The notes beneath the pieces were generated by a model. That model had not been told where the DNA came from and ran no database searches. It saw only the letters and a list, made by a program, of their open reading frames with translations. The position numbers and the translations under genes were made by a program. From Candidatus Caenarcanales bacterium (GTDB taxonomy: Bacteria > Cyanobacteriota > Vampirovibrionia > LMEP-6097), in the NCBI GenBank assembly GCA_044351165.1, contig JBILGG010000001.1:1-24502 (forward strand): a DNA stretch of 24,502 bases, read 5' to 3'. This document shows, piece after piece, positions 601 to 18,554 of the stretch; positions within the stretch are counted from its first letter, which is position 1, and every line of letters starts with the position of its first letter.

Positions 601-1641
601 TTGCAAATCAATCAACCAGTACTAACAGATCCATTTTTGGCCAATTTATCAGCAATGGCTGAAAATCTATCGCCCTCGCTGGCTCCGACTCAAGCTCCGC
701 AAATAACACTCCCTCCTCAGCCTGTTGCTCCTGTTATTACAGCGACCCAGAACCTTCTACATCAACCCCCAAGCGAAAAGCTTATAAAAACTCTTGGCGA
801 TTTTGGCACACTTGTCGATAAAGCTTCTACCTTCGAAATGGTTATGGCGGGCTTGGGCACGGTGTTTAGTGGGTTTCAAGCTGATTGGATAGCTTATTTT
901 TTAGAATCCTTCGGTGAAAAATCTGAAAATGCTTTTGTCTCTGATCGGCAAATACCCGATTATATTGCTAAGCCGCTTAAGTTTTTGGCAAAAGTCTATG
1001 GTATTAAAACCGAGTCAGGGACTGAGATTCAGACTAGTGATGATCTTAAAAAATCTCAAGAAAAACTAATCGGTGCGATAAATACTACTTTTTCAAGTTT
1101 TTCACTTCTCAATATTGTGTTTAGAACTATTCCTCACGCCCTAAAAAATATTTTTGGTAAAGCTCAGTCAGAGAGCGGATCTGGTGTCTTTAATTTTATA
1201 TCTACTAAGATTTTACCTTTTGCAAATGCTGGCTTGATGTGGGGCTCAGGCGCTGGCAAGCGCCAGTTAGCAGGCGCGATCCAGAAGCTTGATTATAATT
1301 CTTACCGTCATCAAGTCGATGGCGCGTGGGCATCTGGAGTGCAGGATTATCTCTGCGGTATGAATTCATTTGCCTTAATGGCTCGCCAAGCGATTTCTAG
1401 TTTTAGTCCTAAGCTTGCTAAACTGCTCGAGCCTGTTTTAGCATTATGGATCTCAGGATCCAGTCTAAAAGAGGGTTTGCACGCTCTTAATGGACACGAA
1501 GAAGAAACTCCTAAATATGAATTTGGATTTTTGGATAAATCTTTATTTGGTAATTTATCTTATAAACTCGCTCAGTTTTTAGCAGATAAGTTTCAAGTAA
1601 AATTACCAGAACTAAGCGCTAATGGTCTTAAGCATTCTTAG
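601..1641 (+). CDS. Hypothetical protein (346 aa), P/Q-rich N-terminus, several hydrophobic or amphipathic segments
   Basis: Long ORF, TTG start uncertain; no family motif recognised. Confidence 0.7.
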   Translation: MQINQPVLTDPFLANLSAMAENLSPSLAPTQAPQITLPPQPVAPVITATQNLLHQPPSEKLIKTLGDFGTLVDKASTFEMVMAGLGTVFSGFQADWIAYFLESFGEKSENAFVSDRQIPDYIAKPLKFLAKVYGIKTESGTEIQTSDDLKKSQEKLIGAINTTFSSFSLLNIVFRTIPHALKNIFGKAQSESGSGVFNFISTKILPFANAGLMWGSGAGKRQLAGAIQKLDYNSYRHQVDGAWASGVQDYLCGMNSFALMARQAISSFSPKLAKLLEPVLALWISGSSLKEGLHALNGHEEETPKYEFGFLDKSLFGNLSYKLAQFLADKFQVKLPELSANGLKHS

Positions 1642-2086
1642 TCATGTTCATCGCTTCTTGACTTGCTTTTTTAGCCATTTCTACGATACTTAAATTAGCT
1701 TTATACTGCCTAACAGCATTCATCATTTTGAGCATTTCGCCCGCCCCATCGACGTTTGAAGTCTCTACATTACCGTCTTTATCGGCAAGTGGGTGATTAG
1801 GCATAAATACTTTCATCCCTGGTGTTTGGTCTTCAACAATTTTTGCTATTTGCGGGCCAGCACCTTTGTGATCACCTTTTAAAAGATGCGAAACACCCTC
1901 ATGATCACCAAGTCCAGCCAGGATGGTCGAAAAACTTTCGTCTTGAGATCTAGCTGAAAACACCGGGCTTTTTGCTTTGTAGCCTGGAGTTAGCATATTG
2001 GACACATTCTCAGAAGCCAGTTCCATTGCGCCTCGCGTGGTAGTTAATCCATTGTGTGCGATGTGATAAATATCAAATATACTCAT
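1628..2086 (-). CDS. flgC: Flagellar basal-body rod protein FlgC
   Basis: N-terminal ENVSNMLTPGY (ANxxTPGY-like), NHPLADKDGNV, and C-terminal NVD..EM..M..A.R.Y.AN; directly downstream of flgB with a 1-nt TAATG overlap. Confidence 0.9.
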   Translation of the reverse strand: MSIFDIYHIAHNGLTTTRGAMELASENVSNMLTPGYKAKSPVFSARSQDESFSTILAGLGDHEGVSHLLKGDHKGAGPQIAKIVEDQTPGMKVFMPNHPLADKDGNVETSNVDGAGEMLKMMNAVRQYKANLSIVEMAKKASQEAMNMTKNA

Positions 2087-2436
2087 TATGCTGCCCTTCC
2101 TGATTGTGTTGCTTCTTCTAGACCTTTATAATAATCACCATTGATTTTCACTAAAAGTAAGTACTTCAAATGGTTTTCTGTCATTTCTGCTAATTCTTTT
2201 TCAAAACTTGGTTTAGTGCTGTGATCCTCATAGGTAGCGTTTTCTATGATGCGCTCGCCGTTAATTTCATTGATGCCTTTGCTGTTAAGATCTTTTATAA
2301 CCATTCCAAAATCCAGGTCCTGTCTAACGAAGCCCGGTGTACTAACGTTGGTTAGGTTATTGGATAGTAGCTGTTGCCGGTCAGCGACTGCATTTAATAG
2401 GACGTTGACGGTTTTTTCGTGGTGTGTTTTTAGCAT
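2086..2436 (-). CDS. flgB: Flagellar basal-body rod protein FlgB (divergent)
   Basis: RQQLLSNNLTNVSTPGFVRQDLDF matches the FlgB N-terminus; C-terminal EKELAEMTENHLKY; position before flgC. Confidence 0.8.
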   Translation of the reverse strand: MLKTHHEKTVNVLLNAVADRQQLLSNNLTNVSTPGFVRQDLDFGMVIKDLNSKGINEINGERIIENATYEDHSTKPSFEKELAEMTENHLKYLLLVKINGDYYKGLEEATQSGRAA

Positions 2437-2449
2437 AGGCTTGACTCTG

Positions 2450-2487
2450 TGCCTTAATATAAATAACCAGATTTAAGGTTTGGTTAA
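2450..2487 (-). promoter_or_regulatory. TTAAC-N6-TTAA-N4-GGTTATTTATA-N3-AGGCA motif upstream of flgB
   Basis: Minus strand reads ttaac caaacc ttaa atct ggttatttata tta aggca; the same fixed positions occur at 10431-10468 upstream of the M23 gene. Confidence 0.6.
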
Positions 2488-2500
2488 AGCCTCTTGCTTT

Positions 2501-2509
2501 TGTTATAAT
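2501..2509 (+). promoter_or_regulatory. Extended -10 promoter (TGtTATAAT) for proA operon
   Basis: Perfect TGnTATAAT, 8 nt before ATG 2518. Confidence 0.6.
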
Positions 2510-2517
2510 TCTTGATT

Positions 2518-3819
2518 ATGTCTAGTGATTGTTGCGATGATTCAGCTCTTGTTCAGGACCCTGATTTACAGTTATTATCAGCCCTAACCGACCAAATAAA
2601 AGAAGCTAAAACAGCTTCTTATCAAATGTCCATTTTAGCGGAGTCCCAAAAAAACTACGCTCTTGAGCTTATCGAAAGAGAATTGCGCGAGTCGGTTTCT
2701 ACTATTATTGAAGCTAATAAAAAAGATCTTGAAAACCCCGAAAACGCCAGTCTCACCCCTGCCATGAAAGACAGGCTTATGCTAAATGCCGAAAGAATTA
2801 TGGCGATTGCTAATAGCGTTAGAAAAATTACCGCCATGAAAGATCCCGTCGGTAATGTACTTGATGGCTGGCAGCACCCAAATGGTATGCGCATCACAAA
2901 AGTAAGAGTGCCGCTTGGCGTCATTGGCATTATTTACGAAGCGCGTCCAAATGTTACAGTCGATGCGATAGCTCTTGCCATCAAATCCGGTAATGCAGTG
3001 GTTTTGAGAGGCTCTAAGCAAGCTTGGTTTACTAATCATGCGATAGTTCAAGTAATTTTAAAAGCCCTAGAACAAACAGAAGTCCCGTTAAAAGCAATTC
3101 AATATCTAAAAGATCGCACTCGTGAAGGCTGTAAGCTGATACTGCGCGCTGAAGGTTTGATTGATTTGGTTATTCCGCGCGGCGGCGAAACTCTTAATAA
3201 ATTTGTTACTGACAATGCCATCATTCCCGTTCTGGGAGCGGGTGGCGGGACTTGCCATGTTTTTATCGATCAGTTTGCTGATATAGAAAAATCTATTGCG
3301 ATCTCGATTAATGCTAAGGTTTCGCGACCGAGTGTTTGTAATTCTTGCGAGACTATCTTGGTTCACGAAAATATAAAAGATATAATTCTGCCACGCTTGG
3401 TCGATGCTCTTCTATCCAAAAACGTCGAAATCATAGGCGACCAGAGCGTTGTAGCTCAGTTCCCATTTGTTAGCATGGCTCAAGAAGCTGATTGGCATAA
3501 AGAATATCTCGATTTAAAAGTCTCAATTAAAATTGTCCAAGATATCCACGAAGCTATTAGTCATATTAATCGTTACTCCACAGGTCACTCAGAAGCCATT
3601 ATTACTGAGGATTTGCAGAGCGCTGAGCTGTTTAAACGCATGATTAATTCAGCTTGCGTCTATGTGAATGTCAGCACTAGATTTACTGATGGCGAGGAGT
3701 TTGGTTTTGGGGCGGAGATGGGAATTAGCACAGTTAAAATGCACGCTCGCGGACCTATCGGCGCAAAAGAACTCTGCACCTATAAATATCTAATAGAGGG
3801 TAATGGACAAATCCGATAA
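2518..3819 (+). CDS. proA: Gamma-glutamyl phosphate reductase (glutamate-5-semialdehyde dehydrogenase)
   Basis: RVPLGVIGIIYEARPNVT, KSGNAVVLRGS, catalytic VCNSCET, STRFTDGEEFGFGAEMGIST, HARGPIG. ORF track starts at TTG 2512; ATG 2518 preferred. Confidence 0.97.
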   Translation: MSSDCCDDSALVQDPDLQLLSALTDQIKEAKTASYQMSILAESQKNYALELIERELRESVSTIIEANKKDLENPENASLTPAMKDRLMLNAERIMAIANSVRKITAMKDPVGNVLDGWQHPNGMRITKVRVPLGVIGIIYEARPNVTVDAIALAIKSGNAVVLRGSKQAWFTNHAIVQVILKALEQTEVPLKAIQYLKDRTREGCKLILRAEGLIDLVIPRGGETLNKFVTDNAIIPVLGAGGGTCHVFIDQFADIEKSIAISINAKVSRPSVCNSCETILVHENIKDIILPRLVDALLSKNVEIIGDQSVVAQFPFVSMAQEADWHKEYLDLKVSIKIVQDIHEAISHINRYSTGHSEAIITEDLQSAELFKRMINSACVYVNVSTRFTDGEEFGFGAEMGISTVKMHARGPIGAKELCTYKYLIEGNGQIR

Positions 3820-4411
3820 AATAGGGCTTTTGGGCGGTACTTTTGACCCGATCCATAATGGTCATATCGAGATGGCCCTTTATGCCCAAGCTCATTTTCA
3901 GCTCGATAAAATATTTTTTATCACCGCCAAAAATCCCCCTTTTAAATCTCAAACAGTTTTATTACCTGCTAATTTTCGTCACCGACTTGCTGAACTTGCG
4001 ATAAGTAATTATCCTAATTTTTTTGCAAGCCCCGTAGAACTCAATCGGGAAGGGGTTTCTTACGCTTACCAAACAGTCGAATATTTTAAATCTCAAAATC
4101 CTGATGCTGAATTGTTTTGGATTATGGGAATGGATGCCTATCAAACTCTTGACCAATGGAAAAACTCTGATTACATTAAATCTCAAGTAAAATTTATTGT
4201 GTTCGCGCGTGGCCCAAAATCTCCGCTATCAGAAGATGTTTTTTTAGTTGAAAATTTTGCCAATGCTACGAGCTCTACTCTCGTTCGTCAGATAATAGGA
4301 GACTGCGGAACTAACCAGATAACAAAAAAATCACTTTTAAAAGATCTTATCCCAGAATCTATTATTTCAATTTTGCTCAACCAAGCCCCAAAACCAGTAA
4401 TTAAGCACTAA
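3803..4411 (+). CDS. nadD: Nicotinate-nucleotide adenylyltransferase
   Basis: GGTFDPIHNGH (HxGH motif), PPFK, FWIMGMDA...W, SSTLVR; overlaps the proA end by 17 bp. Confidence 0.93.
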   Translation: MDKSDKIGLLGGTFDPIHNGHIEMALYAQAHFQLDKIFFITAKNPPFKSQTVLLPANFRHRLAELAISNYPNFFASPVELNREGVSYAYQTVEYFKSQNPDAELFWIMGMDAYQTLDQWKNSDYIKSQVKFIVFARGPKSPLSEDVFLVENFANATSSTLVRQIIGDCGTNQITKKSLLKDLIPESIISILLNQAPKPVIKH

Positions 4412-4475
4412 TTTTTACATCATTTAATTGAGTTAATGGTTAGCCCCTAGATTAATTCTGTGGAATAATAGAATT

Positions 4476-5018
4476 ATGGCAGATGATAAAAAATCAGCAC
4501 CCGCGGCCACAGGTGGTAATCCACCTAACATGATCATTTTGATTGTGTTTATTTTTATTGCCGCGTTTGGTGGAACTTTTTTGGCTTTTCAATTAGCCCC
4601 TAAGACAATCACCGTCAATCAAACTCTAAAAGAAACTCGCGAACCCAATGAAGGAGACCATTTGCCGATTTCTCCGCTTGGCGATTTTGTGGTGAATTTA
4701 GCAGATGTTAGCGGAAGTAGATTTTTAAAAATTTCAATTACAGCAAAACTTTATTCTGAAGATTTTGAAGAGTATTCTAAGCTTAAAGGTGAAGAAAAAC
4801 ACGCTTACCATTTAAGAATAGATGAAGAGCTTCAGCCGATGATGCCCGCTATTAAAGATGTGGTCATAACCACGCTTTCACGCAAAAAATCAGATGAAGT
4901 GATAGGCTACGAAAATAAAATCGCCCTAAAAGCTGAATTAAAAGAGCAGTTAAGCAATATCATGCACGGCGAATTCAAGATTTACGATATTTATTTTACA
5001 GATTTTATAGTTCAGTAA
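4476..5018 (+). CDS. fliL: Flagellar basal body-associated protein FliL
   Basis: Single N-terminal TM segment, then LGDFVVNLAD..RFLKISI, IKDVVITTLS, and C-terminal IYFTDFIVQ; upstream of fliM. Confidence 0.9.
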   Translation: MADDKKSAPAATGGNPPNMIILIVFIFIAAFGGTFLAFQLAPKTITVNQTLKETREPNEGDHLPISPLGDFVVNLADVSGSRFLKISITAKLYSEDFEEYSKLKGEEKHAYHLRIDEELQPMMPAIKDVVITTLSRKKSDEVIGYENKIALKAELKEQLSNIMHGEFKIYDIYFTDFIVQ

Positions 5019-5078
5019 ACTTAGCACCTAGGCTATTTGACCTATTTAGCTTACTTAGAGCTAGGGAATAATTTATAT

Positions 5079-7075
<1,997 letters not shown>

Positions 7076-7092
7076 TTAGAGCGGTATTGCTG

Positions 7093-7323
7093 TTAAATTA
7101 AAGTGCTCGGAATGAATCTTCGATTGTATTCTTCAGATCCCAAATTAAATTTTGTTCTCAAAAGATATATCCCGGTGCCGCTAGGAGGGGCTCCATAGGC
7201 TTTTTTATAAAGACCTGATAAAAACTTATAAGCTGATTCATCGTCCAAAGATTCTATTTGTAAGAGGTCTGCCTCTTCGATGCTTTCAATAAAATTATTA
7301 ATTATTCCTTCAGACAAAAACAT
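7093..7323 (-). CDS. Hypothetical protein (76 aa)
   Basis: ATG-started ORF filling the gap in a run of minus-strand genes; protein-like composition; no family recognised. Confidence 0.55.
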   Translation of the reverse strand: MFLSEGIINNFIESIEEADLLQIESLDDESAYKFLSGLYKKAYGAPPSGTGIYLLRTKFNLGSEEYNRRFIPSTLI

Positions 7324-7460
7324 CTTAAATATTATTTGCCCAAATTTCCAAAATATTATCTAAAATACGACGATAAATTTTTATTATCTTGGGCTATGAT
7401 AGCGGCTTTTGAGGATAATATTAAAAAAAATTAATGTTATCTACTGGTGAAAAGCGCAAT

Positions 7461-7877
7461 TTAGCGAAGAAGATAATTTATAGCCTGGGAAATTTTTGGG
7501 ATATAAGTATATTTGCCGCGTAAAGTCCAAATAATGGCATATAAAGTAAGTACCTGAGCTAGTAAGCTATATGCTTTTAGTAAACTTTGGCTAAGGTAGC
7601 CTAGTAGCGAAATGCTATTTTCAAACACCGTAAAAATTCCTAGAAAATTTGATAAAAAACTTATTACTAAGCTAAAAAAACTTGGCAAGAAAAAAATTAT
7701 CATATTGAGCAAAACCGCTTGGTAACAGTGATACTTCACAAAATCTTTTTGGTAAATTTTTCTAATGTTCGAGACAATAATCCATATTATCGGCACAAAA
7801 GTCATCAATGGAATAAAGTAACTGCTATATAGTATGGAGCAGAGAATCTTGTCTTTTGTGGTGGGAATATTTACCAT
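7461..7877 (-). CDS. Tic20/DUF4870-like membrane protein
   Basis: Hydrophobic helices, FVKYHCYQAVLL motif, and C-terminal G.Y..IP.IS typical of this family as I recall it; overlaps the hisS stop. Confidence 0.65.
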   Translation of the reverse strand: MVNIPTTKDKILCSILYSSYFIPLMTFVPIIWIIVSNIRKIYQKDFVKYHCYQAVLLNMIIFFLPSFFSLVISFLSNFLGIFTVFENSISLLGYLSQSLLKAYSLLAQVLTLYAIIWTLRGKYTYIPKISQAINYLLR

Positions 7878-9136
7878 AAATGTTGTTTTATAAAATCACC
7901 TAGCTCGTTTAGATTTCTAAATTCCGTTTCCTGAGTGGTTTTGGTGTTTTTGAGTTTGATTATGCCAGAGTTTCTTTCATCCGCCATAAAAAATATTATC
8001 CAATCGCAGTTTTTTTTCAGAGCTTTTTCAAGCTGTTTTTTAAATTTACTTAATTCATAATCTAATTCTACGGTAAGCCCTGGAATCAAGTCCCTAACCT
8101 GGTTTGCTAGGTTTAGAGCTGGCGTGCCCTCGTCGCTTATAATATATAACTTAGGAGTTTTTTCTGGCTGAAACTCGTTTTCTTTTAGCAGTTCAATAAT
8201 TCTTTCTTGCCCGCAAGCCCAGCCGCAAGCCGGTGTAGGAGCGCCTCCTAAGTAGCTCACCAGATTATCATATCTTCCACCAGCCAGAACAGTGCTTTGG
8301 TTAGCAAGCTTGATGGAGCTGGTTTTGATTTCAAAGACACAATGATTATAATAATCAAGACCCCTAACTAATTTAGGATCCACTACAAAATTTATATTTA
8401 GTGTCTTTAGTCCTAATAGAACCTCTTGCCAAATACTCTTGGATTCTTCATCAAAAAAATCTTGGATCAAGGGTGCATTTTTATAGAGTTCTTGATCTGC
8501 TTCCACCTTGCAATCCAGGCATCTGAGCGGGTTTTGGGTCATTCGGCGCTTGCAATCTTCGCAGACTTGCTCGGAGTATTGATTTAGAAAATCTTTTAAT
8601 GCGCTAGTGTAGTTAGCTCTAGAGTTTTTATTGCCGATCGAGTTTATATATAAAGTAAGATTTTGCAAACCTACGGACTTTAGAAATTTTATAGCTAAGT
8701 TAATTATTTCTAGATCTATAAAAGGTCCGTCGCTGCCGAGCGCTTCAGCACCAATTTGATGAAACTGTCTGTACCTGCCGGTTTGAGGACGCTCGTAGCG
8801 AAACATAGGTCCTTGGTACCAGAGCTTGATGGGCTTTTGGTTACGATCTAGATTATGTTCGATGTAGCTTCGAGCAACTCCTGCTGTGCCCTCGGGTCTA
8901 AGGGTCATAGATCTATCGCCACGATCTAAAAAAGTATACATTTCTTTATTGACGATATCGCTATCTTCTCCGACAGCTCGACTAAAAAGTTCCGTCGCTT
9001 CAAAAATTGGTGTGCGGATTTCTTTAAAGCCAGCACTCTTAAAAACCGCTTGGCTAGTGCTTTCTAGGTATTGCCATAGATCAGACTCTTCTAAAATCAC
9101 ATCATGAGTGCCTCTAGGCGCTTGGATTTTATTCAT
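7871..9136 (-). CDS. hisS: Histidine--tRNA ligase
   Basis: PRGTHD, LRPEGTAGVAR, motif 2 FRYERPQTGRYRQFHQIG, LVRGLDYY, motif 3 GGRYDNL; C-terminal anticodon-binding domain. Confidence 0.98.
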   Translation of the reverse strand: MNKIQAPRGTHDVILEESDLWQYLESTSQAVFKSAGFKEIRTPIFEATELFSRAVGEDSDIVNKEMYTFLDRGDRSMTLRPEGTAGVARSYIEHNLDRNQKPIKLWYQGPMFRYERPQTGRYRQFHQIGAEALGSDGPFIDLEIINLAIKFLKSVGLQNLTLYINSIGNKNSRANYTSALKDFLNQYSEQVCEDCKRRMTQNPLRCLDCKVEADQELYKNAPLIQDFFDEESKSIWQEVLLGLKTLNINFVVDPKLVRGLDYYNHCVFEIKTSSIKLANQSTVLAGGRYDNLVSYLGGAPTPACGWACGQERIIELLKENEFQPEKTPKLYIISDEGTPALNLANQVRDLIPGLTVELDYELSKFKKQLEKALKKNCDWIIFFMADERNSGIIKLKNTKTTQETEFRNLNELGDFIKQHLW

Positions 9137-9139
9137 GAC

Positions 9140-9961
9140 TTACCCTTTTATTTCTGGTATTTCTTCTTCTTGTTCTATGTCAGTAAATCCATCGGCGGCT
9201 TTTACATTAGGCTCAGGGATTGAGGTGTAGGCTAGCAAAGTAAAGCTAACATTTAGATCAGTATTTTGCGCTTCATCAAGCGGACTGCTTGATCTTTTTG
9301 CTCCAGAAAATCTTTTATCAGCACCCATCTGAGCCGCTACACCGCTTCTGGTGATAGTAAGATTAGATACTTCCACAGCTCGATAATAAGTAATAATGTC
9401 AGAAAAGAATTTATTATAGCTAGCGAATTTGCCGCGAGACTCAATATTGATGATGGTTTTGAGCACCATGGCGTGCTGTTCTTCTAGCTGTAGAGTTTTT
9501 CTTTTGGAGTAAGATTTTTTATTGGGCATTATTTCCTTGCCCGCGATCGTAATGGCCAAGGCGTCTTTAGGCATAAAGCTGATAATTTCTATATTGTTTT
9601 CTTTAGCCAGTAACTCAAGATCCCTAACTAAAAACCCCCTTTTTTCCGATAGCGGTAACTGGTCTTTTAGTGTGGCGATGTCTTTTATGATGCTATCTAA
9701 GTTATCTCTAGTTTCTTGAATTTTTTCTCTTGTTACCTGAGGCTCTCTGAGCTGATCTTGCAGGGATTGAATTTCAGTGTTGAGTTTGTTTGATTCATCT
9801 AAACTGGGTTTTAAAACATATAAAAAAACAACTACCGCAATAGCGACACTCAAAATAGCAAGAATATTTTTTTCTCTTTCTTGAATTATCATAAACTCTA
9901 AGGCTTTAAACCTATGTTTACATTCTATACCTGTTTTTGTGTTTTTGTGTTTTGAAGACAT
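9140..9961 (-). CDS. pilO: Type IV pilus assembly PilO-like protein
   Basis: N-terminal TM anchor (ILAILSVAIAVVVFLYVL), coiled coil, QLP...L..L..LA..N.I.I.SF.P, I...G.F..Y..F, then a beta-rich C-terminus. Start could be ATG 9892. Confidence 0.65.
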   Translation of the reverse strand: MSSKHKNTKTGIECKHRFKALEFMIIQEREKNILAILSVAIAVVVFLYVLKPSLDESNKLNTEIQSLQDQLREPQVTREKIQETRDNLDSIIKDIATLKDQLPLSEKRGFLVRDLELLAKENNIEIISFMPKDALAITIAGKEIMPNKKSYSKRKTLQLEEQHAMVLKTIINIESRGKFASYNKFFSDIITYYRAVEVSNLTITRSGVAAQMGADKRFSGAKRSSSPLDEAQNTDLNVSFTLLAYTSIPEPNVKAADGFTDIEQEEEIPEIKG

Positions 9962-10048
9962 TCCTACGAATTACGCAAAATTCTAAATAACACCAAGCGC
10001 CCAAAGCTTTTCAGGTAAAACCCCCACCCAAGAAGCATTTAGCGAATC

Positions 10049-10180
10049 CTAAATCATATCCAAAAACTCTTTCCAAGGATATACCGTAATATCTCCCAGG
10101 GCTCTGAAGCGAGGTACTCGAGCGATGCAGATCAGTTCTGCAGAAGGACAAATTTCTCGAAAAGAAAAAAGCCCTTTAAG
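10049..10180 (-). pseudogene. 3' remnant (about 43 codons) resembling the C-terminus of AAA+/DUF4143 ATP-binding proteins
   Basis: LKGLFSFREICPSAELICIARVPRFRALGDITVYPWKEFLDMI* resembles, from memory, the LKGL..F.E..P....I.......R..G.I...PW.EFL tail of that family. Bounded on both sides by repeat ends. Confidence 0.5.
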
Positions 10181-10321
10181 GATTCGCTGAAAAACGAAGT
10201 TTTGAGGCGGAATCCGCTTAACAAAAATATTAAGGATCTGCAAATCCACTCCCTGAGCCAAGATTCTTTCTTGGCTCAGGGTTGAAAAATTGACGAAGTC
10301 GAATTTTTCAGTGGATCCTTA
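10177..10321. mobile_element. MITE/REP-like element, 145 bp, 18-bp imperfect terminal inverted repeats, TTAA at both ends
   Basis: Left end taaggattcgctgaaaaa; right end (reverse complement) taaggatccactgaaaaa, 16/18 identical. Internal hairpins at 10205-10219, 10251-10281 (13-bp perfect stem) and 10283-10310. Confidence 0.6.
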
Positions 10322-10430
10322 AGATCGGCTTTGCTCCTATGAGAGTATCTTCTTTATATCAAATTTATATCAAAATATAAAAAGTGCTTTTCTAAGTCTG
10401 TTTTTGGTCGGGGTCTGAAAATAAGTGAGC

Positions 10431-10468
10431 TTAACTTATTTTTAACCCAGGTTATTTATAAATAGGCA
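10431..10468 (+). promoter_or_regulatory. TTAAC-N6-TTAA-N4-GGTTATTTATA-N3-AGGCA motif upstream of the M23 gene
   Basis: ttaac ttattt ttaa ccca ggttatttata aat aggca; matches the flgB upstream motif without gaps. Confidence 0.6.
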
Positions 10469-11346
10469 TGAGCATTGGCGGTTCACAAATCCCAGCAGAA
10501 CAAAGAGTAAACCAGATTATTCAGCGCATAGATACGCTCTCTGGTTCAGTCGAGCACAATGACTATAATCCGCAAAATAATTACGATAATTCTAACGCTC
10601 AAAACTTTAAGGCTATTGCAACCATGATGCAGGCAAACATGCTTGGACAGGCACTTTCAGGCGATAAAGATTCTTCTGGTCCATTTGATGGCATGATGAA
10701 TGGCCTGATGGGCATGAATTATCCTGGCGGGGCAATGGGTCAAATAGGTCAAATAGGTCAAATTGGCCAAATGAATCCCATGATGCAGATGATGAATATG
10801 TCGAATCCCATGTGGAACCTTATGCAAGGGCAAGGTTCAGGCGCGCAGTTTAATCCGCTAAACCAGCTCCAAAACTCTATCCCTAAGTCTTTTAATGATT
10901 CTGATATGGTAATGCCCGTTCAGGGACGGGTTTCTAGCGAGTATGGTCATCGCCACCACCCTATAAAAGGACATTCACATTTCCATTCAGGAGTCGATAT
11001 CGCCGCTCCCTTAGGAACACCTATTAGAATGCCGTGGGCCGGTAAGGTAGTCTTCGTGGGACATGTCCAGGGTTTTGGTGATAACACCGTCATTGTCGCT
11101 CATGAAAACCAAAAGCAACCTGATGGCAAAATTATTTATTCTGTGTTCGGGCATAATAGTGATGTTTTTGTTAGAGCCGGTGATACGATGGCTCAAGGTG
11201 AAATCGTCGCCGCGGTAGGCTCTGAGGGTAATTCCACTGGTCCGCATCTTCATTGGGAAACACGGCTTGGTGAGCCTGGATTACAGGGCACGCAAGTCTT
11301 TAATCAAAACCTTGCCATGACGGTTAATCCGATGAATTATGCGTAA
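10468..11346 (+). CDS. M23-family zinc metalloendopeptidase (peptidoglycan hydrolase) with N-terminal helical region and M/G/Q/N-rich linker
   Basis: HSGVDIAAP (HxxxD) and STGPHLHWE (HxH) zinc motifs, GRVSSEYG.R.HPI, YSVFGH; no signal peptide seen. Confidence 0.92.
   Translation: MSIGGSQIPAEQRVNQIIQRIDTLSGSVEHNDYNPQNNYDNSNAQNFKAIATMMQANMLGQALSGDKDSSGPFDGMMNGLMGMNYPGGAMGQIGQIGQIGQMNPMMQMMNMSNPMWNLMQGQGSGAQFNPLNQLQNSIPKSFNDSDMVMPVQGRVSSEYGHRHHPIKGHSHFHSGVDIAAPLGTPIRMPWAGKVVFVGHVQGFGDNTVIVAHENQKQPDGKIIYSVFGHNSDVFVRAGDTMAQGEIVAAVGSEGNSTGPHLHWETRLGEPGLQGTQVFNQNLAMTVNPMNYA
10738..10773 (+). repeat. 9-bp tandem repeat x4 (GGTCAAATA), encoding GQIGQIGQIGQM
   Basis: ggtcaaata ggtcaaata ggtcaaatt ggccaaatg. 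Confidence 0.85.
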
Positions 11347-11393
11347 GGATCCACTAAAAAATCGACGAAGTCGAATTTTTCAGCGAATCTTTA
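11344..11393. repeat. 50-bp palindromic copy of the same MITE/REP family, beginning at the M23 stop codon; may act as terminator
   Basis: taaggatccactaaaaaatcgac-gaa-gtcgaatttttcagcgaatcttta; each end is 17/18 identical to an end of the 145-bp element, and the 27-bp core matches 10285-10311 at 26/27. Confidence 0.8.
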
Positions 11394-11450
11394 ATTATCA
11401 ATTTTTTTAAATTCGCTCTTTATATATCTAGAGGGATATAGGGAATAGTC

Positions 11451-12536
11451 ATGAGCCTTTTGAATTTTTCAACGGCAAATAGTTTTTTTGCCCCTGGTTT
11501 AGCTTACGCGGGTCCGTCTTTTACTTCTCGTACAGGCACTGTCACGAATATTGCTAATAAAGCCAGCGAAATGCTTGATAATCTTGGTTATTGTGGATTT
11601 TTTCAATCTATAGTCGAGGGTGTTAAAAGTTTTTGTAAGAATATTAGAGAGTCATCTCTTTTTTCATGGATGTTTGATTCGGTTCAGTATGATTCTGAAT
11701 CCCGCTCTGTGATTGATAAAGCTAAGTGCCGCAATAATTCATGTACGCCTGATGAACATATTAAATATCATAAAGATCTTGAGTTTAGCGATACTAATCC
11801 TAATGGCATTTATAAATCACATTTTGCTCCGCCTGGAAAAGCTAAAACTCAAGTTTATCTACTTCTTGGTCACTGTCAGGGTTTTAAAGATAAAGAAGAA
11901 GAGACTGGCGTGCTCCGTCTTTATAATAAATTGGTAAAAGATAATGATTGTGATGTAGTTTTGTTTAGGGTAGGTTGCGCGATGACAGATCTTAAACATG
12001 TTTCAGGCTTATCTGATAAAGCGGATCTCAAGCCTGAAGTTGTAAAAGAACACATCACTAATATTATTGAAGATAGGAATCATAGTCGAGGAGTTTTTGC
12101 AGGTCATGCTAAGCCAGCTAATGTGGTGATTGCAGGATACAGCTGGGGAGCAGGTTTGAGCAAAGAAATTTTAGACAGATGGAAGAAGATTGGTAACGAT
12201 ACCAAAGTTAGCACGAGTCTAACTTTAGATGCAGTTCAGTATGGTGTAGATAATTTTGCTACCAGTCTAAAAGAGCGTCCAGCCTATTCTGAAAAGCACG
12301 TCAACATTTATCAAAACAATGATTTATTTATTAATGGTAGTGATCTAAAGGGCATGGATCCCAGTAAACAAGATGTTTCTATGGATGTTGATAAATTAAA
12401 GCCTGGTACTAGCTTACAACATACTGAGATAGATGATGATCCTAATATTATTGATTCGATGTATCGAGAAATTCGAGAATCGGTTATTAACAGCCCCGCT
12501 TCAAAACCTGGTAATTTAGTTTTGCAAAAAGTCTAA
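11451..12536 (+). CDS. Alpha/beta-hydrolase-fold protein (putative lipase/esterase) with N-terminal extension
   Basis: VVIAGYSWGAG nucleophile elbow (GxSxG), following strand TLDAV, candidate catalytic His in LQHTEIDDD; AGGGA RBS. Confidence 0.65.
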   Translation: MSLLNFSTANSFFAPGLAYAGPSFTSRTGTVTNIANKASEMLDNLGYCGFFQSIVEGVKSFCKNIRESSLFSWMFDSVQYDSESRSVIDKAKCRNNSCTPDEHIKYHKDLEFSDTNPNGIYKSHFAPPGKAKTQVYLLLGHCQGFKDKEEETGVLRLYNKLVKDNDCDVVLFRVGCAMTDLKHVSGLSDKADLKPEVVKEHITNIIEDRNHSRGVFAGHAKPANVVIAGYSWGAGLSKEILDRWKKIGNDTKVSTSLTLDAVQYGVDNFATSLKERPAYSEKHVNIYQNNDLFINGSDLKGMDPSKQDVSMDVDKLKPGTSLQHTEIDDDPNIIDSMYREIRESVINSPASKPGNLVLQKV

Positions 12537-13118
12537 AAGTTTTTTTAGGGCTTGGCTGCGGTGACTTAGTGAGTTTTTTAGTTCGTTTCCTAATTCAGCT
12601 ACAGTCTGGTCAAACCCAGTAGGGACAACGATCGGATCGTAACCAAATCCATTAGAGCCTTTGGCTTGATAGCTAATTTTTCCAGGCCAATATTCCTCAG
12701 TCTCAAAAACTTTTTGGCCACTTTGATCAAGCGCAGTGATATTACAAACAAATCTACACTCTCGGTTCTCTTGGTTTTGCATTTCTGCAAGCACGCCTTC
12801 AATCCCGCCACCAGCTTGCTTTAGGTATCTTCCAGAGTAGATTCCTGGTCTGCCACCGAGTGCAGAAATTTCAATACCACTGTCATCAGCGATCACCAAA
12901 AAACTTTCGTCAAGTAATTTACTAGTGATATCAAAACCTGCTTGAGCCTTTATAAGAGCGTTTTGGCTGAAGCTCAGACCATTTTCTTCGGGGTCGAAGA
13001 CCTCGTTATATATTTCACTAATAGCTCTAAAGCCTGCGCCAGCATTGGAGATGGAGTTAAATTCTTTGATCTTGCCTTTGTTGGAACTGCAAATTATCAG
13101 GTTTTGGTATTTATTCAT
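12516..13118 (-). CDS. rdgB: Non-canonical purine NTP pyrophosphatase (dITP/XTP), RdgB/HAM1 family
   Basis: SSNKGKIKEF, F..NA..KA, ADDSG....ALGGRPGIYSGR, GFGYDPI, SHRSQA. ATG 13118 preferred over 13139. Confidence 0.95.
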   Translation of the reverse strand: MNKYQNLIICSSNKGKIKEFNSISNAGAGFRAISEIYNEVFDPEENGLSFSQNALIKAQAGFDITSKLLDESFLVIADDSGIEISALGGRPGIYSGRYLKQAGGGIEGVLAEMQNQENRECRFVCNITALDQSGQKVFETEEYWPGKISYQAKGSNGFGYDPIVVPTGFDQTVAELGNELKNSLSHRSQALKKLLDFLQN

Positions 13119-13156
13119 AGCTTGATCAAATGTTATCATTAATATTGATAAATCCT

Positions 13157-13828
13157 ATGTTTAAAACCATAAAGCGCGAATTGCAAAACATCTACCAAAA
13201 AGACCCTTCTTGCAATAATTGCTTTGGTATATTTTTGTATTATCCTGGTTTTCAAGCGGTTTTGGCTCATAGATTTTTGCATAAACTTTGGAATCAGCCG
13301 ATAAAAGCTCTGCGACCTTTTGCTCAATTTTTGGCTAGGTTGTTTCAATACTGGATTAAAATCCTTACTAATATTGAGATTCATCCTTCAGCAAAAATTG
13401 GTAATAATTTTTTTATTGATCATGGTTCAGGTGTAGTTATCGGTGAGACTACGATTGTTGGTGATGATGTGGTTTTGTATCAGGGAGTCACTCTGGGAGG
13501 CGTTTCCACCAAAAAAGAAAAACGTCACCCGACTTTAGGCTCTAATATTGTGGTTGGTGCTGGTGCTAAAATTCTTGGTAATATTCATATTGGTGATTTT
13601 GTGCAAGTCGGCGCAAACTCTGTGGTGGTGCGGGATGTACCTTCGCATAGTACTGTTGTAGGGATCCCGGGCAAGATTATCAAGATGAATATTGAGCTTG
13701 AAGAAGCCATTAAGAACCTCGAGCACAACAACACCCCAGATTATATCGGCGTTACTCTTGAATTGTTATTAAAACGGGTCGCTGAGCTTGAAGAAGAGCT
13801 TAAATTGCTTAAATCTAAGTCTGCATAA
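13157..13828 (+). CDS. cysE: Serine O-acetyltransferase (short type)
   Basis: DPS.....LYYPGFQA...[51 protein letters not shown]-like hexapeptide repeats, GIPGK; C-terminal coiled coil. ATG 13157 preferred. Confidence 0.96.
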
Positions 13829-15063
13829 ATTAGCCAATTGCTGGTAAATTCGTTACTCACCAAAGATTTAACTACATGAGAGATTTTAGAAATTTCTTCT
13901 AGCTTCCCGTCATCGGTCGCCACAAAAATCGCTTTTTGATAATCACTAGAATCAGGGTTATAAAAACTATACGGCTTGTTTGCTATTGACACTGTATCTA
14001 GATAGTAGTCAGGATCAAGGTTTTGTTTCATCAGCTCTTTTGATTTTTCAGCTTGGACGTCTTCTATGCTGGCATCTTTCAGGATTTTTTCTGCTTTGAA
14101 AATTTTTCTTGACATAAATCTTTTTGCCAAATCTTTTAGCACCACATCTTGCTCGTTTGCCCAGCGCTTGATGTGATGAATAATCAAAGTATCATCTAAC
14201 TGTAAAAAATTATCTAAGCTTAGCTTCTCAGGCTGGCTAACCCAGTCAAAGACAGGGGTTTCGATAAATGCGATTCTGCGATTTCTGATCAATAATTTTA
14301 CTCTTTTAAAAAGTTTAAGAAGTAAGCTATCGCTTGCTAGGCATTTTTTATGTTGGTAGACCTGCATATACATTGAGTAGCGTGCGTATAAGTAATCTTC
14401 AACTGCCAGCATTCCTTTTTCGCCACTGACTACAAGGCAGTCATAGAGCGGATTTACGGTAATGCTGTTAATTACTCGTGTCAAATCAAAATTCCCGTAT
14501 GCTGTTCCGGTGTGAAAACTATCCCTAAGTAGATAATCAAATCTATCGCAGTCCAATTGACTCGTAACGATACTTGATAAAAATTTTACTGGATAAGTTT
14601 TTTGTAGAACCGAAATAACTTTTTCACTGAAGCCTGTCTCAAACCTTTCCAGCACTTGGTTTACCTCGGTTTCGGGGCTGGCAATAATTTTTTCAGTCCA
14701 GATTTCGTGCTTGATATTGTTTATAGCCTCGCTTGAATGACTAAATGGTGCGTGCCCCAAATCATGTAACAGAGCGCTACTTAAGACAAGAGCCTTGTAT
14801 TCGTCTTTTAGAGTGGGTTCTAGATCCATTTCTTTTGTGAGCTTCTCAAACATCAATCGCGCGACGTGCATAGTACCAAGGCTATGCGGGAATCTAGATG
14901 CTTCCGCGCCGTGAAAAGTAAACCAACCAGTCCCTAGCTGGCGGATCCAGCGGAGTCTTTGCATTTCTTTTGTGTCGATCAGCGCGATAATAAGGTTTTC
15001 GGCTTTATCTTCGCTATCGAGCTGAATTTCTTTATGGATGGGGTCTCTATAAGTGCGTGACAT
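13741..15063 (-). CDS. HD-domain phosphohydrolase (COG1078/YwfO-like, dNTP triphosphohydrolase-related)
   Basis: [59 protein letters not shown]. Confidence 0.92.
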
Positions 15064-15107
15064 TTGATTTTAAATAATCGTAAATTTAATTTTTGGCCCT
15101 GCTGGCC

Positions 15108-15123
15108 TTAACTTCATCTTAAC
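15108..15123 (+). promoter_or_regulatory. TTAA-N7-TTAAC box
   Basis: ttaa cttcatc ttaac, just upstream of the candidate sRNA and 45 bp from the HD gene start. Confidence 0.45.
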
Positions 15124-15137
15124 AACAAAATGATTAA

Positions 15138-15257
15138 ACATATACAGCTTGAGTTACGAATAGCCCAGATTCAAGGCTCTTGCGTATGTAGGACTAGTTT
15201 ATCCAAGACCGCAGGTGTTATTTAAGTGTAAGTCGGTCTTGGCTAGTCTATTTTTTT
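15138..15257 (+). ncRNA. Candidate small RNA: two stem-loops ending in a terminator-like hairpin with T7
   Basis: Imperfect stem 15138-15189; stem ggactag/ctagtct plus ccaagaccg/cggtcttgg (15191-15249) followed by A-TTTTTTT; no upstream + strand gene for it to terminate. Not recognised as any known family. Confidence 0.4.
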
Positions 15258-15281
15258 GAAATTAATATTATCTAGAAAGAC

Positions 15282-15332
15282 TAGTGCATTCGTAGACAAT
15301 GTCTTCCATAAACATTGTCTACGAATGTACTA
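15282..15332. repeat. 21-bp inverted repeat with 9-nt loop
   Basis: tagtgcattcgtagacaatgt / acattgtctacgaatgtacta; 20 Watson-Crick pairs plus one G-T. Confidence 0.85.
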
Positions 15333-15422
15333 CTAGTTCAAAATAATAGCCCTGAAAACGCCAATCTCATCCAGATTATTAAAAAAATATAATGTGCAGT
15401 AACGCATTTGCTTTAATATTTA

Positions 15423-15431
15423 TGTTATAAT
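15423..15431 (+). promoter_or_regulatory. Extended -10 promoter (TGtTATAAT)
   Basis: Perfect consensus 48 nt before the small ORF at 15480. Confidence 0.55.
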
Positions 15432-15479
15432 TACGAAAGGAGTTTATCACACTTTTTTTAACCTAAGCTTAGGAGGGTT

Positions 15480-15563
15480 ATGTTTTTTAAGATAATGGGA
15501 TTAATATTAAGAGTCGATTATGAAATTTCTTGTCAAAAAAATCAAGCCTTCTTCGTTAACTAG
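15480..15563 (+). CDS. Candidate small protein or leader peptide (27 aa: MFFKIMGLILRVDYEISCQKNQAFFVN)
   Basis: AGGAGG at 15471-15476 close to the ATG; downstream of an extended -10; stop lies just before the next RBS. Confidence 0.4.
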   Translation: MFFKIMGLILRVDYEISCQKNQAFFVN

Positions 15564-15583
15564 TTTAAGGAGATTTTCTTAGG

Positions 15584-15835
15584 ATGGATGTTAGTAAGTT
15601 ACAAGGTTTTTTTAACACTATAGTTCCGAAGATTGTTGTTGGAACTGAACACAATACTAGAAACGTACAAAGACCCTCTGTTTTTCAGAAACGAGATTCT
15701 TTTAGTAAATCAGACTTACATGTTTCAGGTAAGGCATTAGCATCTGCAACGGATGAATCTAAGTCTGTTAAGGAATCTGGACCTCGATTATCTCGATTGC
15801 TCCAAGATGCGGCAAACTATTATAGCGCAGCATAA
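15584..15835 (+). CDS. Hypothetical protein (83 aa), weak FlgM-like features
   Basis: AAGGAG RBS at 15567-15572; followed by an intrinsic terminator. Confidence 0.7.
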   Translation: MDVSKLQGFFNTIVPKIVVGTEHNTRNVQRPSVFQKRDSFSKSDLHVSGKALASATDESKSVKESGPRLSRLLQDAANYYSAA

Positions 15836-15866
15836 AAATTTTTCACTCACACCCTGTTTATTCATC

Positions 15867-15895
15867 AAGGACTCACATTGTGAGTCCTTTTTTTT
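15867..15895 (+). terminator. Rho-independent terminator
   Basis: aaggactcac-att-gtgagtcctt followed by a T run, 31 nt after the stop at 15835. Confidence 0.85.
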
Positions 15896-16002
15896 GAGTT
15901 AGTTTAGTAAGACCTTAACCCTAAAAAGTTTCAATATAAATATCAATTTTAAGTCAAAAAAATCTTTATATTAATACAGCAATTTTAGGGAGTTAAATTT
16001 TT

Positions 16003-16407
16003 ATGGTAAACATCAATGGATTAAACGGTTTTGGATCTTTAGGCGGGCCCGATAAACCAGAAATCAAGGCTCAAACTCCGGCTAATAACCAGCCAGTATT
16101 TAATCCAAATGCGCAAGTTATGCAAGCCCAGAGTCAGGCTGCTGCGATGGCGCGTCTTCAGTTTAAAAAATCCAAATCAAGCTCTGCGATTGATGATGAG
16201 ATGGAAGAATTTGAGAATTCAGAAATCGAAGTGGATGTAGAAACTATCGGCTTGATAAAAATTTCTGATGAGCAATTAGAGCGCTTCAAAGAGCGTGTAG
16301 AAAAGGGTCTTAAGGATCAAGAAGAGCAGATTATGTCAGCGGTTAATATGTTCGGTGGTAATGAAAAAGATTTGCGGCATGTGATTAGCTCGATCATGCT
16401 TTTTTAG
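16003..16407 (+). CDS. Hypothetical protein (134 aa), N/P/Q/A-rich N-half and acidic helical C-half
   Basis: AGGGAG RBS and ATG start; no family recognised. Confidence 0.75.
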   Translation: MVNINGLNGFGSLGGPDKPEIKAQTPANNQPVFNPNAQVMQAQSQAAAMARLQFKKSKSSSAIDDEMEEFENSEIEVDVETIGLIKISDEQLERFKERVEKGLKDQEEQIMSAVNMFGGNEKDLRHVISSIMLF

Positions 16408-17621
16408 TCAGATAAATATTTTTTATGCCTAAGTTCTTCAGGTAGATATTCTTGCTCTACCCAATTGCCCGGATAATCGTGCGGGTATTTATAAAGTGTT
16501 TTAGGGTTGGTTTGTGCGTTATCGCTTTTGGCTGGACAAGCATCCAGATGAAGACCTCTAAGGTGCTCTGGGACTGGGTATGGAGGGTGGTTCCTGGTGT
16601 CTTGCAGAGCTTTTTCTAGAGCCTTATAGCTTGAATTAGATTTGGGTGCAAGTGCGATATAGCTAACAGCCTGAGCCAGCACGATTCGCGCTTCGGGCAT
16701 GCCCAGTCTTAAAGCCGCTTGGTAAGCGGAGTTAGCCAGAATAAGAGCTTGCGGGTCGGCTAGCCCTACATCCTCTGAAGCAGTTACTAAAATTCTTCTA
16801 GCAACACTTTCTAATTCCGCTCCGCCTTCAAGTAACCTAGCTAACCAATACAGCGACCCATCCACGCTAGAGCCGCGCATGGATTTTTGGAGTGCTGAAA
16901 CGCAGTCATAGTAAGAGTTTGGATCGCCAGCAAAAATCTTGCGCCCGATCAGATCTTGGCAGGTAGAGAGCTCTATTGGGTTTTGATCAGTGCTATTAAT
17001 TACTAGTTCTAGGCTAGAAAGTAAATTACGAGCATCTCCCCAGCTGGCTTTGGCGAGATAACTAATAGCAGATCCATTCATAGAGCGTTTTTGGTGGCTT
17101 AGAGCGCGCCCAACAAGCGCCTCTAGATCAGTTAGTGTGTGTGGCTTAAGTTCGAATCTAAGAGTTCTACTGAGAAGCGCGCGATTAATAGAAACCGCTG
17201 GATTTTCTGTGGTCGCGCCGATAAAGATCAGGATCCCGCTTTCGATGGCGTTTAGCAAAATATCTTGCTGAGATTTATTAAAATTATGCACCTCATCTAC
17301 AAACAATAGAATCGAGTTAGGAATTTTTTCTGCGCGGTTAATAATATCTCTTAAATCTTTTACGCCAGAATTAAATGCTTGGAGTTTTATAAATTCTTTA
17401 TTGCTCTGGCGCGCGCAGAGCTCAGAAATAGAGGTTTTGCCGGTTCCAGGCGGGCCCCAAAATATCGCCGATTGTTTGATTCCGTTTTTAAACCACGCCA
17501 AAAAAGCTTGATTAGTTTTTAGGTTACCTACTATATCTTCGATACGATCCGGTCTTAGTCTGTGTGCTAGGGGTTTAAACTCAGTTGCGCTGTTATAAAA
17601 GATGTTTTCCTGACTAAGCAC
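16404..17621 (-). CDS. rarA: Replication-associated recombination protein A (RarA/MgsA AAA+ ATPase)
   Basis: PLA.RLRP, Walker A WGPPGTGKT, Walker B LFVDEVH.FNKSQQD, IGATTENP, SALQKSMRGS, ASEDVGLADP, YKYPHDY; GTG start. Confidence 0.96.
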   Translation of the reverse strand: MLSQENIFYNSATEFKPLAHRLRPDRIEDIVGNLKTNQAFLAWFKNGIKQSAIFWGPPGTGKTSISELCARQSNKEFIKLQAFNSGVKDLRDIINRAEKIPNSILLFVDEVHNFNKSQQDILLNAIESGILIFIGATTENPAVSINRALLSRTLRFELKPHTLTDLEALVGRALSHQKRSMNGSAISYLAKASWGDARNLLSSLELVINSTDQNPIELSTCQDLIGRKIFAGDPNSYYDCVSALQKSMRGSSVDGSLYWLARLLEGGAELESVARRILVTASEDVGLADPQALILANSAYQAALRLGMPEARIVLAQAVSYIALAPKSNSSYKALEKALQDTRNHPPYPVPEHLRGLHLDACPAKSDNAQTNPKTLYKYPHDYPGNWVEQEYLPEELRHKKYLSD

Positions 17622-17628
17622 TCTAAAG

Positions 17629-17637
17629 ATTATAACA
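17629..17637 (-). promoter_or_regulatory. Extended -10 (TGtTATAAT) for rarA
   Basis: 7 nt before GTG 17621. Confidence 0.6.
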
Positions 17638-17653
17638 AATACCTATAGAGCCC

Positions 17654-17668
17654 TTAACTAAAGCTTAA
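17654..17668 (+). promoter_or_regulatory. TTAAC-N6-TTAA box upstream of the 283-aa orphan
   Basis: ttaac taaagc ttaa, 34 nt before ATG 17703. Confidence 0.45.
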
Positions 17669-17702: not shown

Positions 17703-18554
17703 ATGAGATATTTAGGCATAGATCAAGCTTCTAAACCACAGCAAAGGGCTGTAAAATCTGGGCCGCAATCTAGTCCTCAACTGCCTAACAGTGAAATTAA
17801 AAGTTTAGCTAGTAATTTAAAAACAGAGCTTTCTAATAAGCAAACAGAGCGAGGAATAATTGTCGCTCAGTTACTTCAAGCACAAAATTCCAAATCAGCA
17901 ATTTCAGAGCAAGATCAGTGCCGAAATCTTCGTAAACAAGTAAAAGATTTACATCAGCATGGTTCGGTTGATCCAGATCAGTTTCAAACTTTGCAAGATG
18001 ATTATAAAGACTTCGTAGCAAATAAGAATTTGGATGAAAAGCCGTACCTGAGACCTTTTGTGGCTTTTATGGATGATCAGATCCAGGAGCTGTGGGCAAA
18101 GTCAAAAGTAGAATTCACACCCAAGCAAATTTTTGCGATGTATGAAACAAAAGATCAAGCTGTTTCAGTGCTTGATGTAGCTGGCGCAAGCTTAAATCTC
18201 GAACAATTAACTCTTAGTGAGCTATCTAAAATGTCAAAAAGTTTAGAGAAGATGAGAGATGGTTTTGCTGGTCAAGCCACCAGGCTGTTTCCAGAGCTAA
18301 AACCAGTTTTAGCTAAAATAGATGATCAGGTCTCTCAAGCAATAGATCCTGAAAAAGCCAAATTTGATTTTTCTTTAGCTAAAAAACCAGCAGATATGGC
18401 AAAGCAAATAGTCGATATTACCACAGGCAAAGCCACTCCTATCGCTGATGCTAAATTAGAATTAAAAAAATCAATGGTTGGTTATTATGACAATGTTGCT
18501 AATTTGGGTGCTGATCTAAAAAAGCGTGTTGTCGGTGCTTCTGTCGCTAGTTAG
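17703..18554 (+). CDS. Hypothetical helical/coiled-coil protein (283 aa), P/Q/S-rich N-terminus
   Basis: Long ATG-started ORF; no family recognised. Confidence 0.75.
   Translation: MRYLGIDQASKPQQRAVKSGPQSSPQLPNSEIKSLASNLKTELSNKQTERGIIVAQLLQAQNSKSAISEQDQCRNLRKQVKDLHQHGSVDPDQFQTLQDDYKDFVANKNLDEKPYLRPFVAFMDDQIQELWAKSKVEFTPKQIFAMYETKDQAVSVLDVAGASLNLEQLTLSELSKMSKSLEKMRDGFAGQATRLFPELKPVLAKIDDQVSQAIDPEKAKFDFSLAKKPADMAKQIVDITTGKATPIADAKLELKKSMVGYYDNVANLGADLKKRVVGASVAS

Follow-up and report, generated by a model that had tools for sequence, protein, structure and literature searches.

Boxes and genes of the window

The stretch of DNA analyzed here (24,502 nucleotides of contig C254; hereafter, the window) comes from a Candidatus Caenarcanales genome, G000, a 1.45-Mb assembly of 259 contigs that is 76.6% complete. 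Four exact copies of the short element TTAAC-N6-TTAA, hereafter the box, were located in its intergenic regions, each pointing at the unit downstream: an operon of two paralogous flagellar basal-body genes (flgB'-flgC'), an M23 peptidase gene, a stretch without an open reading frame (ORF) that contains a candidate small RNA (sRNA), and a gene for a 283-amino-acid (aa) orphan protein (Table 1). The positions and orientations of all four copies had been given in a sequence-only reading of the window and were reproduced exactly. That reading had also described a gapless extension common to the flgB' and M23 copies, with 25 fixed positions over 38 nt; the extension is present, and 27 identical positions were counted.

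Exact copies were more numerous in the window than expected (4 versus 0.72); of 100 shuffles that preserved dinucleotides, 1 had as many. One-mismatch copies, taken together, occurred at chance level (21 versus 18.1 expected). Two one-mismatch copies had been named in the sequence-only reading; the plus-strand copy at 15458 to 15472 is a true one-mismatch copy with profile support, whereas the copy at 15904 to 15919 is not a one-mismatch copy in this orientation, has a profile score below the threshold, and was rejected as a site. A weak site upstream of fliL (position 4390; score, 12.3) was not accepted.

Metatranscriptomic data were available as assembled contigs. Contigs from four studies covered flgC'-flgB' up to position 2440, and none crossed the promoter; this contig edge is a weak hint that fits a transcription start site (TSS) near 2449. 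The promoters of the M23 gene, the sRNA, and the orphan were covered by no contig.

Table 1. Box copies, the units behind them, and the favored candidate regulator (window coordinates unless a contig is named)
Feature	Coordinates	Strand	Description
Box copy 1	2473..2487	-	CTTTAACC-aaac-CTTAA; exact match; profile score 24.0; promoter of flgB'-flgC'
Promoter parts of box copy 1	2461-2456 (-10); near 2449 (predicted TSS); 2436 (ATG)	-	-10 TATATT; assigned from sequence
flgB'-flgC' operon	1628..2436	-	flgB' 2086-2436; flgC' 1628-2086
Box copy 2	10431..10445	+	Exact match; profile score 19.4; -10 TATAAA 10457-10462; ATG 10468 at predicted TSS
M23 peptidase gene behind box copy 2	10468..11346	+	Peptidase_M23, E = 1.1e-23
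Box copy 3	15108..15122	+	Exact match; profile score 24.4; TG 15131-15132; weak -10 TTAAAC 15134-15139
Candidate sRNA, ~112 nt	15146..15257	+	No ORF; 5' hairpin, intrinsic terminator
Degenerate copy	15458..15472	+	TTAACC-taag-CTTAG; one mismatch; profile score 18.9; poorly placed -10; of doubtful function
ORF downstream of degenerate copy	15584-15835	+	83 aa
Box copy 4	17654..17668	+	Exact match; profile score 24.6; -10 TAAATT 17680-17685; ATG 17703
Orphan gene behind box copy 4	17703..18554	+	283 aa; S/P/Q-rich N-terminus; no signal peptide, no Pfam family
RR1	G000:C135:7114-7800	-	228 aa; OmpR-family protein

Genome-wide enrichment of the box

Coding and intergenic sequences were separated by simple ORF calls, with intergenic sequence making up 9% of the genome. 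Genome-wide, TTAAC-N6-TTAA had 61 matches; 42 were intergenic, compared to approximately 6.3 expected from composition (about sevenfold; Poisson P near 1e-20), and 19 were in coding sequence, compared to approximately 38 expected. Enrichment was found at the N6 spacing only, with spacings N4, N5, N7, and N8 giving 6 to 13 intergenic matches each, and control patterns of the same composition gave 2 to 14 intergenic matches. A start codon lay no more than 100 nt ahead of 29 TTAAC-N6-TTAA matches, versus 0 to 6 for the control patterns. The excess over background suspected from the window was thus found across the genome, both in intergenic location and in direction toward start codons. Among heptamers enriched upstream of genes, GTATAAT ranked first and CTTAACC second. 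A profile scan returned 52 intergenic versus 8 coding sites at a score of at least 16 and 81 versus 41 at a score of at least 10; based on these counts, the regulon is estimated at roughly 50 to 80 promoters in this 77%-complete genome.

An origin of the copies as chance A/T-rich matches or as pieces of a mobile element has a practically negligible probability. It would account for the chance-level number of one-mismatch copies in the window and for two genome-wide matches that lie inside a family of repeats resembling repetitive extragenic palindromes or miniature inverted-repeat transposable elements (REP/MITE-like), but it is contradicted by the intergenic enrichment, by the strict orientation and start-codon distance, by the retention of the box at orthologous promoters across genera, and by the flanks of the copies outside this repeat family, which are mutually unrelated. 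The REP/MITE-like repeat (core GAATCCGCCTCAAAACTTCGTTTTTCAGCGAATCC) was found at window positions 10176 to 10321, at C82:7864-7940, and at C138:2150-2213. It carries TTAAC-N6-TTAA-like ends, which explain the two nonpromoter matches (C82:7864-7878 and C138:2199-2213), and its window copy was covered by a metatranscriptome contig of depth 62 with an 8-nt deletion.

Motif anatomy and promoter architecture

Alignment of the copies gave the full motif cCTTAACC-N4-CTTAA-N6-T-n-TG, followed by a -10 box. With a second-repeat consensus of CTTAAyc, the motif contains a direct repeat with an 11-bp period at about -39 to -18. In the alignment, offset 17 holds the last base of the second 8-bp repeat, T occurs at offset 21 (70% of sites) and at offset 23 (69%), G occurs at offset 24 (56%, versus 17% in the background), and an A/T-rich, TATAAT-like hexamer lies near offsets 26 to 31; the complete TG at the extended -10 position was present in 46% of sites. 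No -35 hexamer was recognizable at these promoters, and TTGAC-N17-19-TAnnnT had 4 to 7 intergenic matches genome-wide. The box therefore stands in place of the -35 element about 10 bp upstream of the -10, which is the position reported for PhoB boxes (PMC1906773), and its tandem direct repeats, both of which are conserved, have the 11-bp period of a Pho box.

Start codons behind the boxes clustered at 36 to 45 nt (20 genes) and 46 to 70 nt (22 genes) from the box start. About 20 box-driven genes have a start codon at, or within a few nucleotides of, the predicted TSS (for example, at window position 10468 and at C65:12720, C82:6725, and C165:2108 of G000). These genes are predicted to be transcribed as leaderless mRNAs, as are counterparts in genus G008, and the M23 transcript would be one of them because its ATG coincides with the predicted TSS.

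An 11-bp-period direct repeat within a genuine cis-regulatory element fits the OmpR family, as the sequence-only reading had proposed. The box is probably the operator of an OmpR/PhoB-family response regulator, placed within the core promoter and used for class II activation, with the protein RR1 as the most likely regulator. In this mechanism, the two direct repeats at about -39 to -18 would take the place of the -35 hexamer, with the T-n-TG extended -10 and the A/T-rich -10 hexamer at a fixed offset and the transcript starting approximately 38 nt past the first T of the box. A head-to-tail regulator dimer would bring in RNA polymerase together with the primary sigma factor, in the manner of PhoB-type class II activation. 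The regulon of approximately 50 to 80 promoters is conserved in a Caenarcaniphilales-like order of Melainabacteria, with about half of its orphans predicted to be on leaderless mRNAs.

The sequence-only reading had also offered a group-3 sigma factor reading TTAA...GGTTAT. In that case TTAACC would be the -35 element of an alternative sigma factor (SigF-like group 3, FliA, or extracytoplasmic function [ECF]), and no response regulator would be involved. The genome does encode SigF-like, FliA/WhiG, and ECF sigma factors, and the (C/G)TTTAA-N15-GGTTAT of the flgB' and M23 copies resembles SigB/F-type promoters. Sigma-28 and group-3 promoters have the consensus TAAA-N15-GCCGATAA or a GGGTAT-type -10, and neither is conserved at box sites, where no GCCGATAA-type sigma-28 -10 was found. 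GGTTAT was confined to the flgB' and M23 copies of this genus and is not conserved in other genera, including at orthologous flgB promoters, unlike the T-n-TG and the -10, which are conserved across genera. The latter combination, a T-n-TG with a TATAAT-like hexamer, is typical of primary sigma factors. Furthermore, TTAACC and the -10 are separated by 20 bp, more than a -35 element allows; the two repeats, 11 bp apart, are equally conserved; and the N6 spacing alone is enriched. Recognition of the box by an alternative sigma factor is thus highly unlikely.

Conservation across the order

The order was represented by 14 genomes (G000 to G013), with 13 genomes from 12 genera forming the family of G000 and with G013 representing a sister family. 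The box was present before flgB in all 13 family genomes, always adjoining a -10, so that the predicted retention upstream of flgB orthologues was borne out; in the sister family, a copy lies approximately 156 nt upstream of flgB. The strict 12-position pattern CTTAACC-N4-CTTAA had 2 to 30 matches per genome in the order, versus 0 to 2 for the reversed control, and 0 to 3 matches per genome in other families of the class. For genus G008, 11 of the 28 box-driven proteins were orthologous (28 to 68% identity) to box-driven proteins of G000, and these shared proteins were FlgB', FliE', M23, the PDZ protein, and seven orphans. The M23 orthologue of G008 (52% identity) has its box at the same distance (d = 40).

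The placement of G000 in Cyanobacteriota is supported by its rpoC, which is split as in cyanobacteria: a closed 648-aa frame (C1:305-2251, minus strand) matched the cyanobacterial rpoC1 model with 882 bits. The split rpoC and the named homologues of its proteins identify G000 as a Caenarcaniphilales-like melainabacterium.

Genes behind the boxes

Among the first genes behind boxes (n = 33), only those for FliE, the PDZ protein, and the M23 peptidase encode a solid Pfam family, compared to 28 of 46 neighboring genes (Fisher test, P = 2e-6). No phosphate gene was among these 33. Three box-driven proteins, namely, FlgB', FliE', and one resembling the rod protein FlgF, have paralogues encoded in or near the canonical flgB-flgC-fliE-fliF cluster on contig C241, where the FlgB' paralogue is at 6190 to 6636. 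FlgC' has a Flg_bbr_C domain, and a second FlgC is present in every family genome. On contig C62, an operon of four genes follows a box: fliE', fliF' (YscJ_FliF domain), one encoding 123 aa, and fliH'. The canonical cluster on C241 has no box, and none was found before the genes for FlgG, the hook protein, FlgK/L, or the flagellins or before fliA.

The order also has two full-length FlhA (FHIPEP) genes per genome, G001 to G013 included (C101:2169-4298 and C168:1536-3641 in G000). As the rod and MS-ring genes are duplicated as well, each cell would have two type III export systems of the flagellar type. Because the paralogues carry the box and the C241 cluster, FlgG, hook, FlgK/L, flagellin, and fliA genes do not, the box marks one of the two sets, namely, a second paralogous basal-body set (flgB'C', fliE'F'H', and flgF'), along with M23, the sRNA, and approximately 40 orphans. 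The proposal that the box cocontrols flagellar genes and orphans is supported by the regulon content. The regulon is neither that of flagella in general nor that of pili, and to this extent the candidate flagellar regulon of the sequence-only reading has to be narrowed.

The box-driven orphans are mostly hydrophilic and lineage specific, without a Pfam family or a signal peptide. Atlas searches with two conserved orphans returned nothing or only leads scoring below 0.9 (YwqH/EsxC-like helical proteins). Two box-driven coiled-coil orphans of 469 and 317 aa (C150:5165-9792, minus strand) are mutual paralogues (E = 1e-17). Downstream of a box-driven 115-aa orphan lies a gene for a 543-aa protein with many EF hands (C210:1340-2968, plus strand), and the divergent neighbor of the box-driven flgF' encodes a 791-aa GAF-GAF-GGDEF protein (C59:874-3249, plus strand).

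A bolder scenario, which is rather unlikely as a whole, is that the 40 or more box-driven hydrophilic orphans, which lack signal peptides and in many cases have leaderless mRNAs, are exported substrates or effectors of a second type III export apparatus. This apparatus would be derived from the flagellum and equipped with a separate FlhA, MS ring, and rod and with M23 as its cell wall hydrolase. A regulator of the PhoB/SphR lineage would be its rewired master switch in an order that has lost Pst, with the sRNA in the circuit, and the whole would form a regulon for secretion that serves nonphotosynthetic cyanobacteria living as epibionts or predators.

Candidate sRNA

The candidate sRNA behind box copy 3 has a predicted fold of -31.7 kcal/mol (z = -1.94) and, in addition to the 5' hairpin and the terminator, carries conserved single-stranded stretches, GCCCAGAUUC and UAUGUAGGACUAGU. 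Five other genomes (G001, G003, G007, G009, and G011) from four other genera retain the box, the TG, and the downstream RNA. The RNA part is 79 to 94% identical in these genomes, with both single-stranded stretches and the intrinsic terminator retained. RNAalifold predicted 16 pairs, 6 of which have compensatory changes on both sides. No Rfam family matched the sRNA.

Candidate regulators

Only three OmpR-family proteins are encoded per genome (RR1, RR2, and RR3), and their best matches are PhoB and cyanobacterial response regulator models. The top model for RR1 was PhoB (TIGR02154; 233.6 bits, below the cutoff of 296). RR1 has homologues with the names Candidatus Caenarcaniphilales (87% identity) and Candidatus Melainabacteria (68%), and its best named cyanobacterial homologue (47% identity) sits in a pstSCAB-response regulator-histidine kinase-phoU cluster, in which CTTAACCT-aaa-CTTTACGT occurs upstream of pstS. 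The recognition helix TVDVHI(C/R)WLR(Q/E)KIE is common to RR1 and this homologue, whereas RR2 and RR3 differ. Because PhoB is its best model, the pst cluster of its homologue carries CTTAACCT before pstS, and the two recognition helices are nearly identical, RR1 is most likely the regulator and would be a melainabacterial descendant of cyanobacterial SphR/PhoB.

Several observations weigh against activation of the box promoters by RR1. RR1 was not found in G008, which is 89% complete and has the most perfect boxes, and the class-level relative G019 has an RR1 with an identical recognition helix yet shows no box enrichment. Most sites consist of two repeats, while SphR is reported with three or more. 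No box precedes any of the three response regulator genes, which therefore give no clue to autoregulation; the best profile scores there and before fliA were at most 5.7. No genome of the order (n = 14) yielded a PstB above the family cutoff, and G000 yielded no PhoU, so that no pst or phoU gene links the box to phosphate. Two class-level relatives, G018 and G019, do have PstB, with PstB-like genes that lack an upstream box and lie outside standard pstSCAB operons; the order may lack the high-affinity phosphate transporter. The bound protein could equally be a repressor, because the box reaches to -18 and a TG-extended -10 can work without a -35 element.

In a less favored explanation, an OmpR-family repressor would sit on the same operator and keep the regulon off until a signal arrives, or RR2 or RR3 would act in place of RR1. 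The overlap of the box with the spacer to -18 and the TG at the extended -10 would suit repression, but these promoters have no recognizable -35 element and their box placement mirrors that of PhoB-activated promoters. Of the three proteins, RR3 shows the highest conservation (81 to 94% within the family), and it was found in G005, G008, and G010, all of which are rich in boxes, but neither RR2 nor RR3 has a recognition helix of the SphR type. The phyletic pattern singles out none of the three, as each is missing in a single incomplete genome and RR1 and RR2 are not confined to the order. Repression, or control by RR2 or RR3, is therefore judged possible but doubtful. RR3 is conserved throughout the class; in G000 (C232:5881-7578, minus strand), its gene immediately follows cdaA, which encodes diadenylate cyclase and has the same orientation.

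If RR1 is the regulator in an order without PstB, and in a genome without a detected PhoU, then a Pho-type operator would have been rewired to a different regulon.

Significance

To our knowledge, nothing is known of how Melainabacteria, an uncultured nonphotosynthetic sister lineage of cyanobacteria, regulate flagella. Flagella themselves are known in this class (PMC4040986), and no paper linking Melainabacteria, PhoB, and flagella was found in the literature. The box provides a sequence-level handle on a whole regulon and indicates which of two flagellar-type sets is coregulated. Approximately 40 proteins without known function and one sRNA are flagged by it as functionally linked to the box-marked set, and the search for the regulator is narrowed to three proteins, one of which is favored. 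The regulon would be a case of rewiring, in which a Pho-box-type operator persists in an order without detected Pst and now marks motility or secretion genes.

Comparison with known systems

The closest known element is the cyanobacterial SphR/PhoB Pho box rather than the CtrA box, to which the sequence-only reading had likened it. SphR binds tandem 8-bp CTTAACCT repeats with 3-bp linkers at Synechocystis sphX, pstS, and phoA (PMC1906773). The consensus cCTTAACC matches both this published half-site and the cyanobacterial pstS promoter; the core, the head-to-tail arrangement, the 11-bp period (8 + 3), and the phylum, Cyanobacteriota, are shared. The two differ in that the SphR Pho box is reported with three or more repeats, whereas the box here has mostly two, fixed inside the core promoter, and in that the regulon described here includes no phosphate genes and instead consists of basal-body paralogues, the sRNA, and orphans. 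Class II promoters of Escherichia coli PhoB, in which two 11-bp repeats bound by an OmpR-family dimer stand in place of the -35 element, a few base pairs before the -10, have the same architecture. The half-site is CTGTCAT there and CTTAACC here, and the TG-extended -10 and the many predicted leaderless mRNAs set the promoters of G000 apart.

The CtrA consensus is TTAA-N7-TTAAC, and CtrA controls motility in Ruegeria (PMC3692519). TTAAC-N6-TTAA equals TTAA-N7-TTAA with a C after the first half-site, and it strikingly resembles the CtrA box (half-site TTAACCAT), with a nearly identical half-site (TTAACC) and 11-bp period and with the OmpR family and early flagellar genes in common. The C-bearing half is promoter distal in G000, however, and the second repeat lies in the spacer. 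As the sequence-only reading had supposed for this lineage, CtrA itself appears to be missing: the three OmpR-family proteins scored 140 to 154 bits on NF045991 (cutoff, 350), and the genome, which is 77% complete, yielded neither ChpT (PF10090) nor GcrA (PF07750). An assignment to CtrA was excluded on these grounds. With no CtrA, ChpT, or GcrA found, a cyanobacterial lineage, and a reversed half-site, the likeness to the CtrA box would be either convergent or due to a shared ancestral OmpR-family half-site. In its half-site, period, and target class, the box thus parallels the alphaproteobacterial CtrA box in an unrelated phylum.

Rhodobacter sphaeroides has dual flagellar systems with separate regulators, and its fla2 system is CtrA dependent. 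The genome studied here resembles such dual systems in having two FlhA export gates and duplicated rod and MS-ring genes, with an OmpR-type box on one set only, and differs from them in that its box-marked set is scattered among housekeeping genes and accompanied by dozens of orphans.

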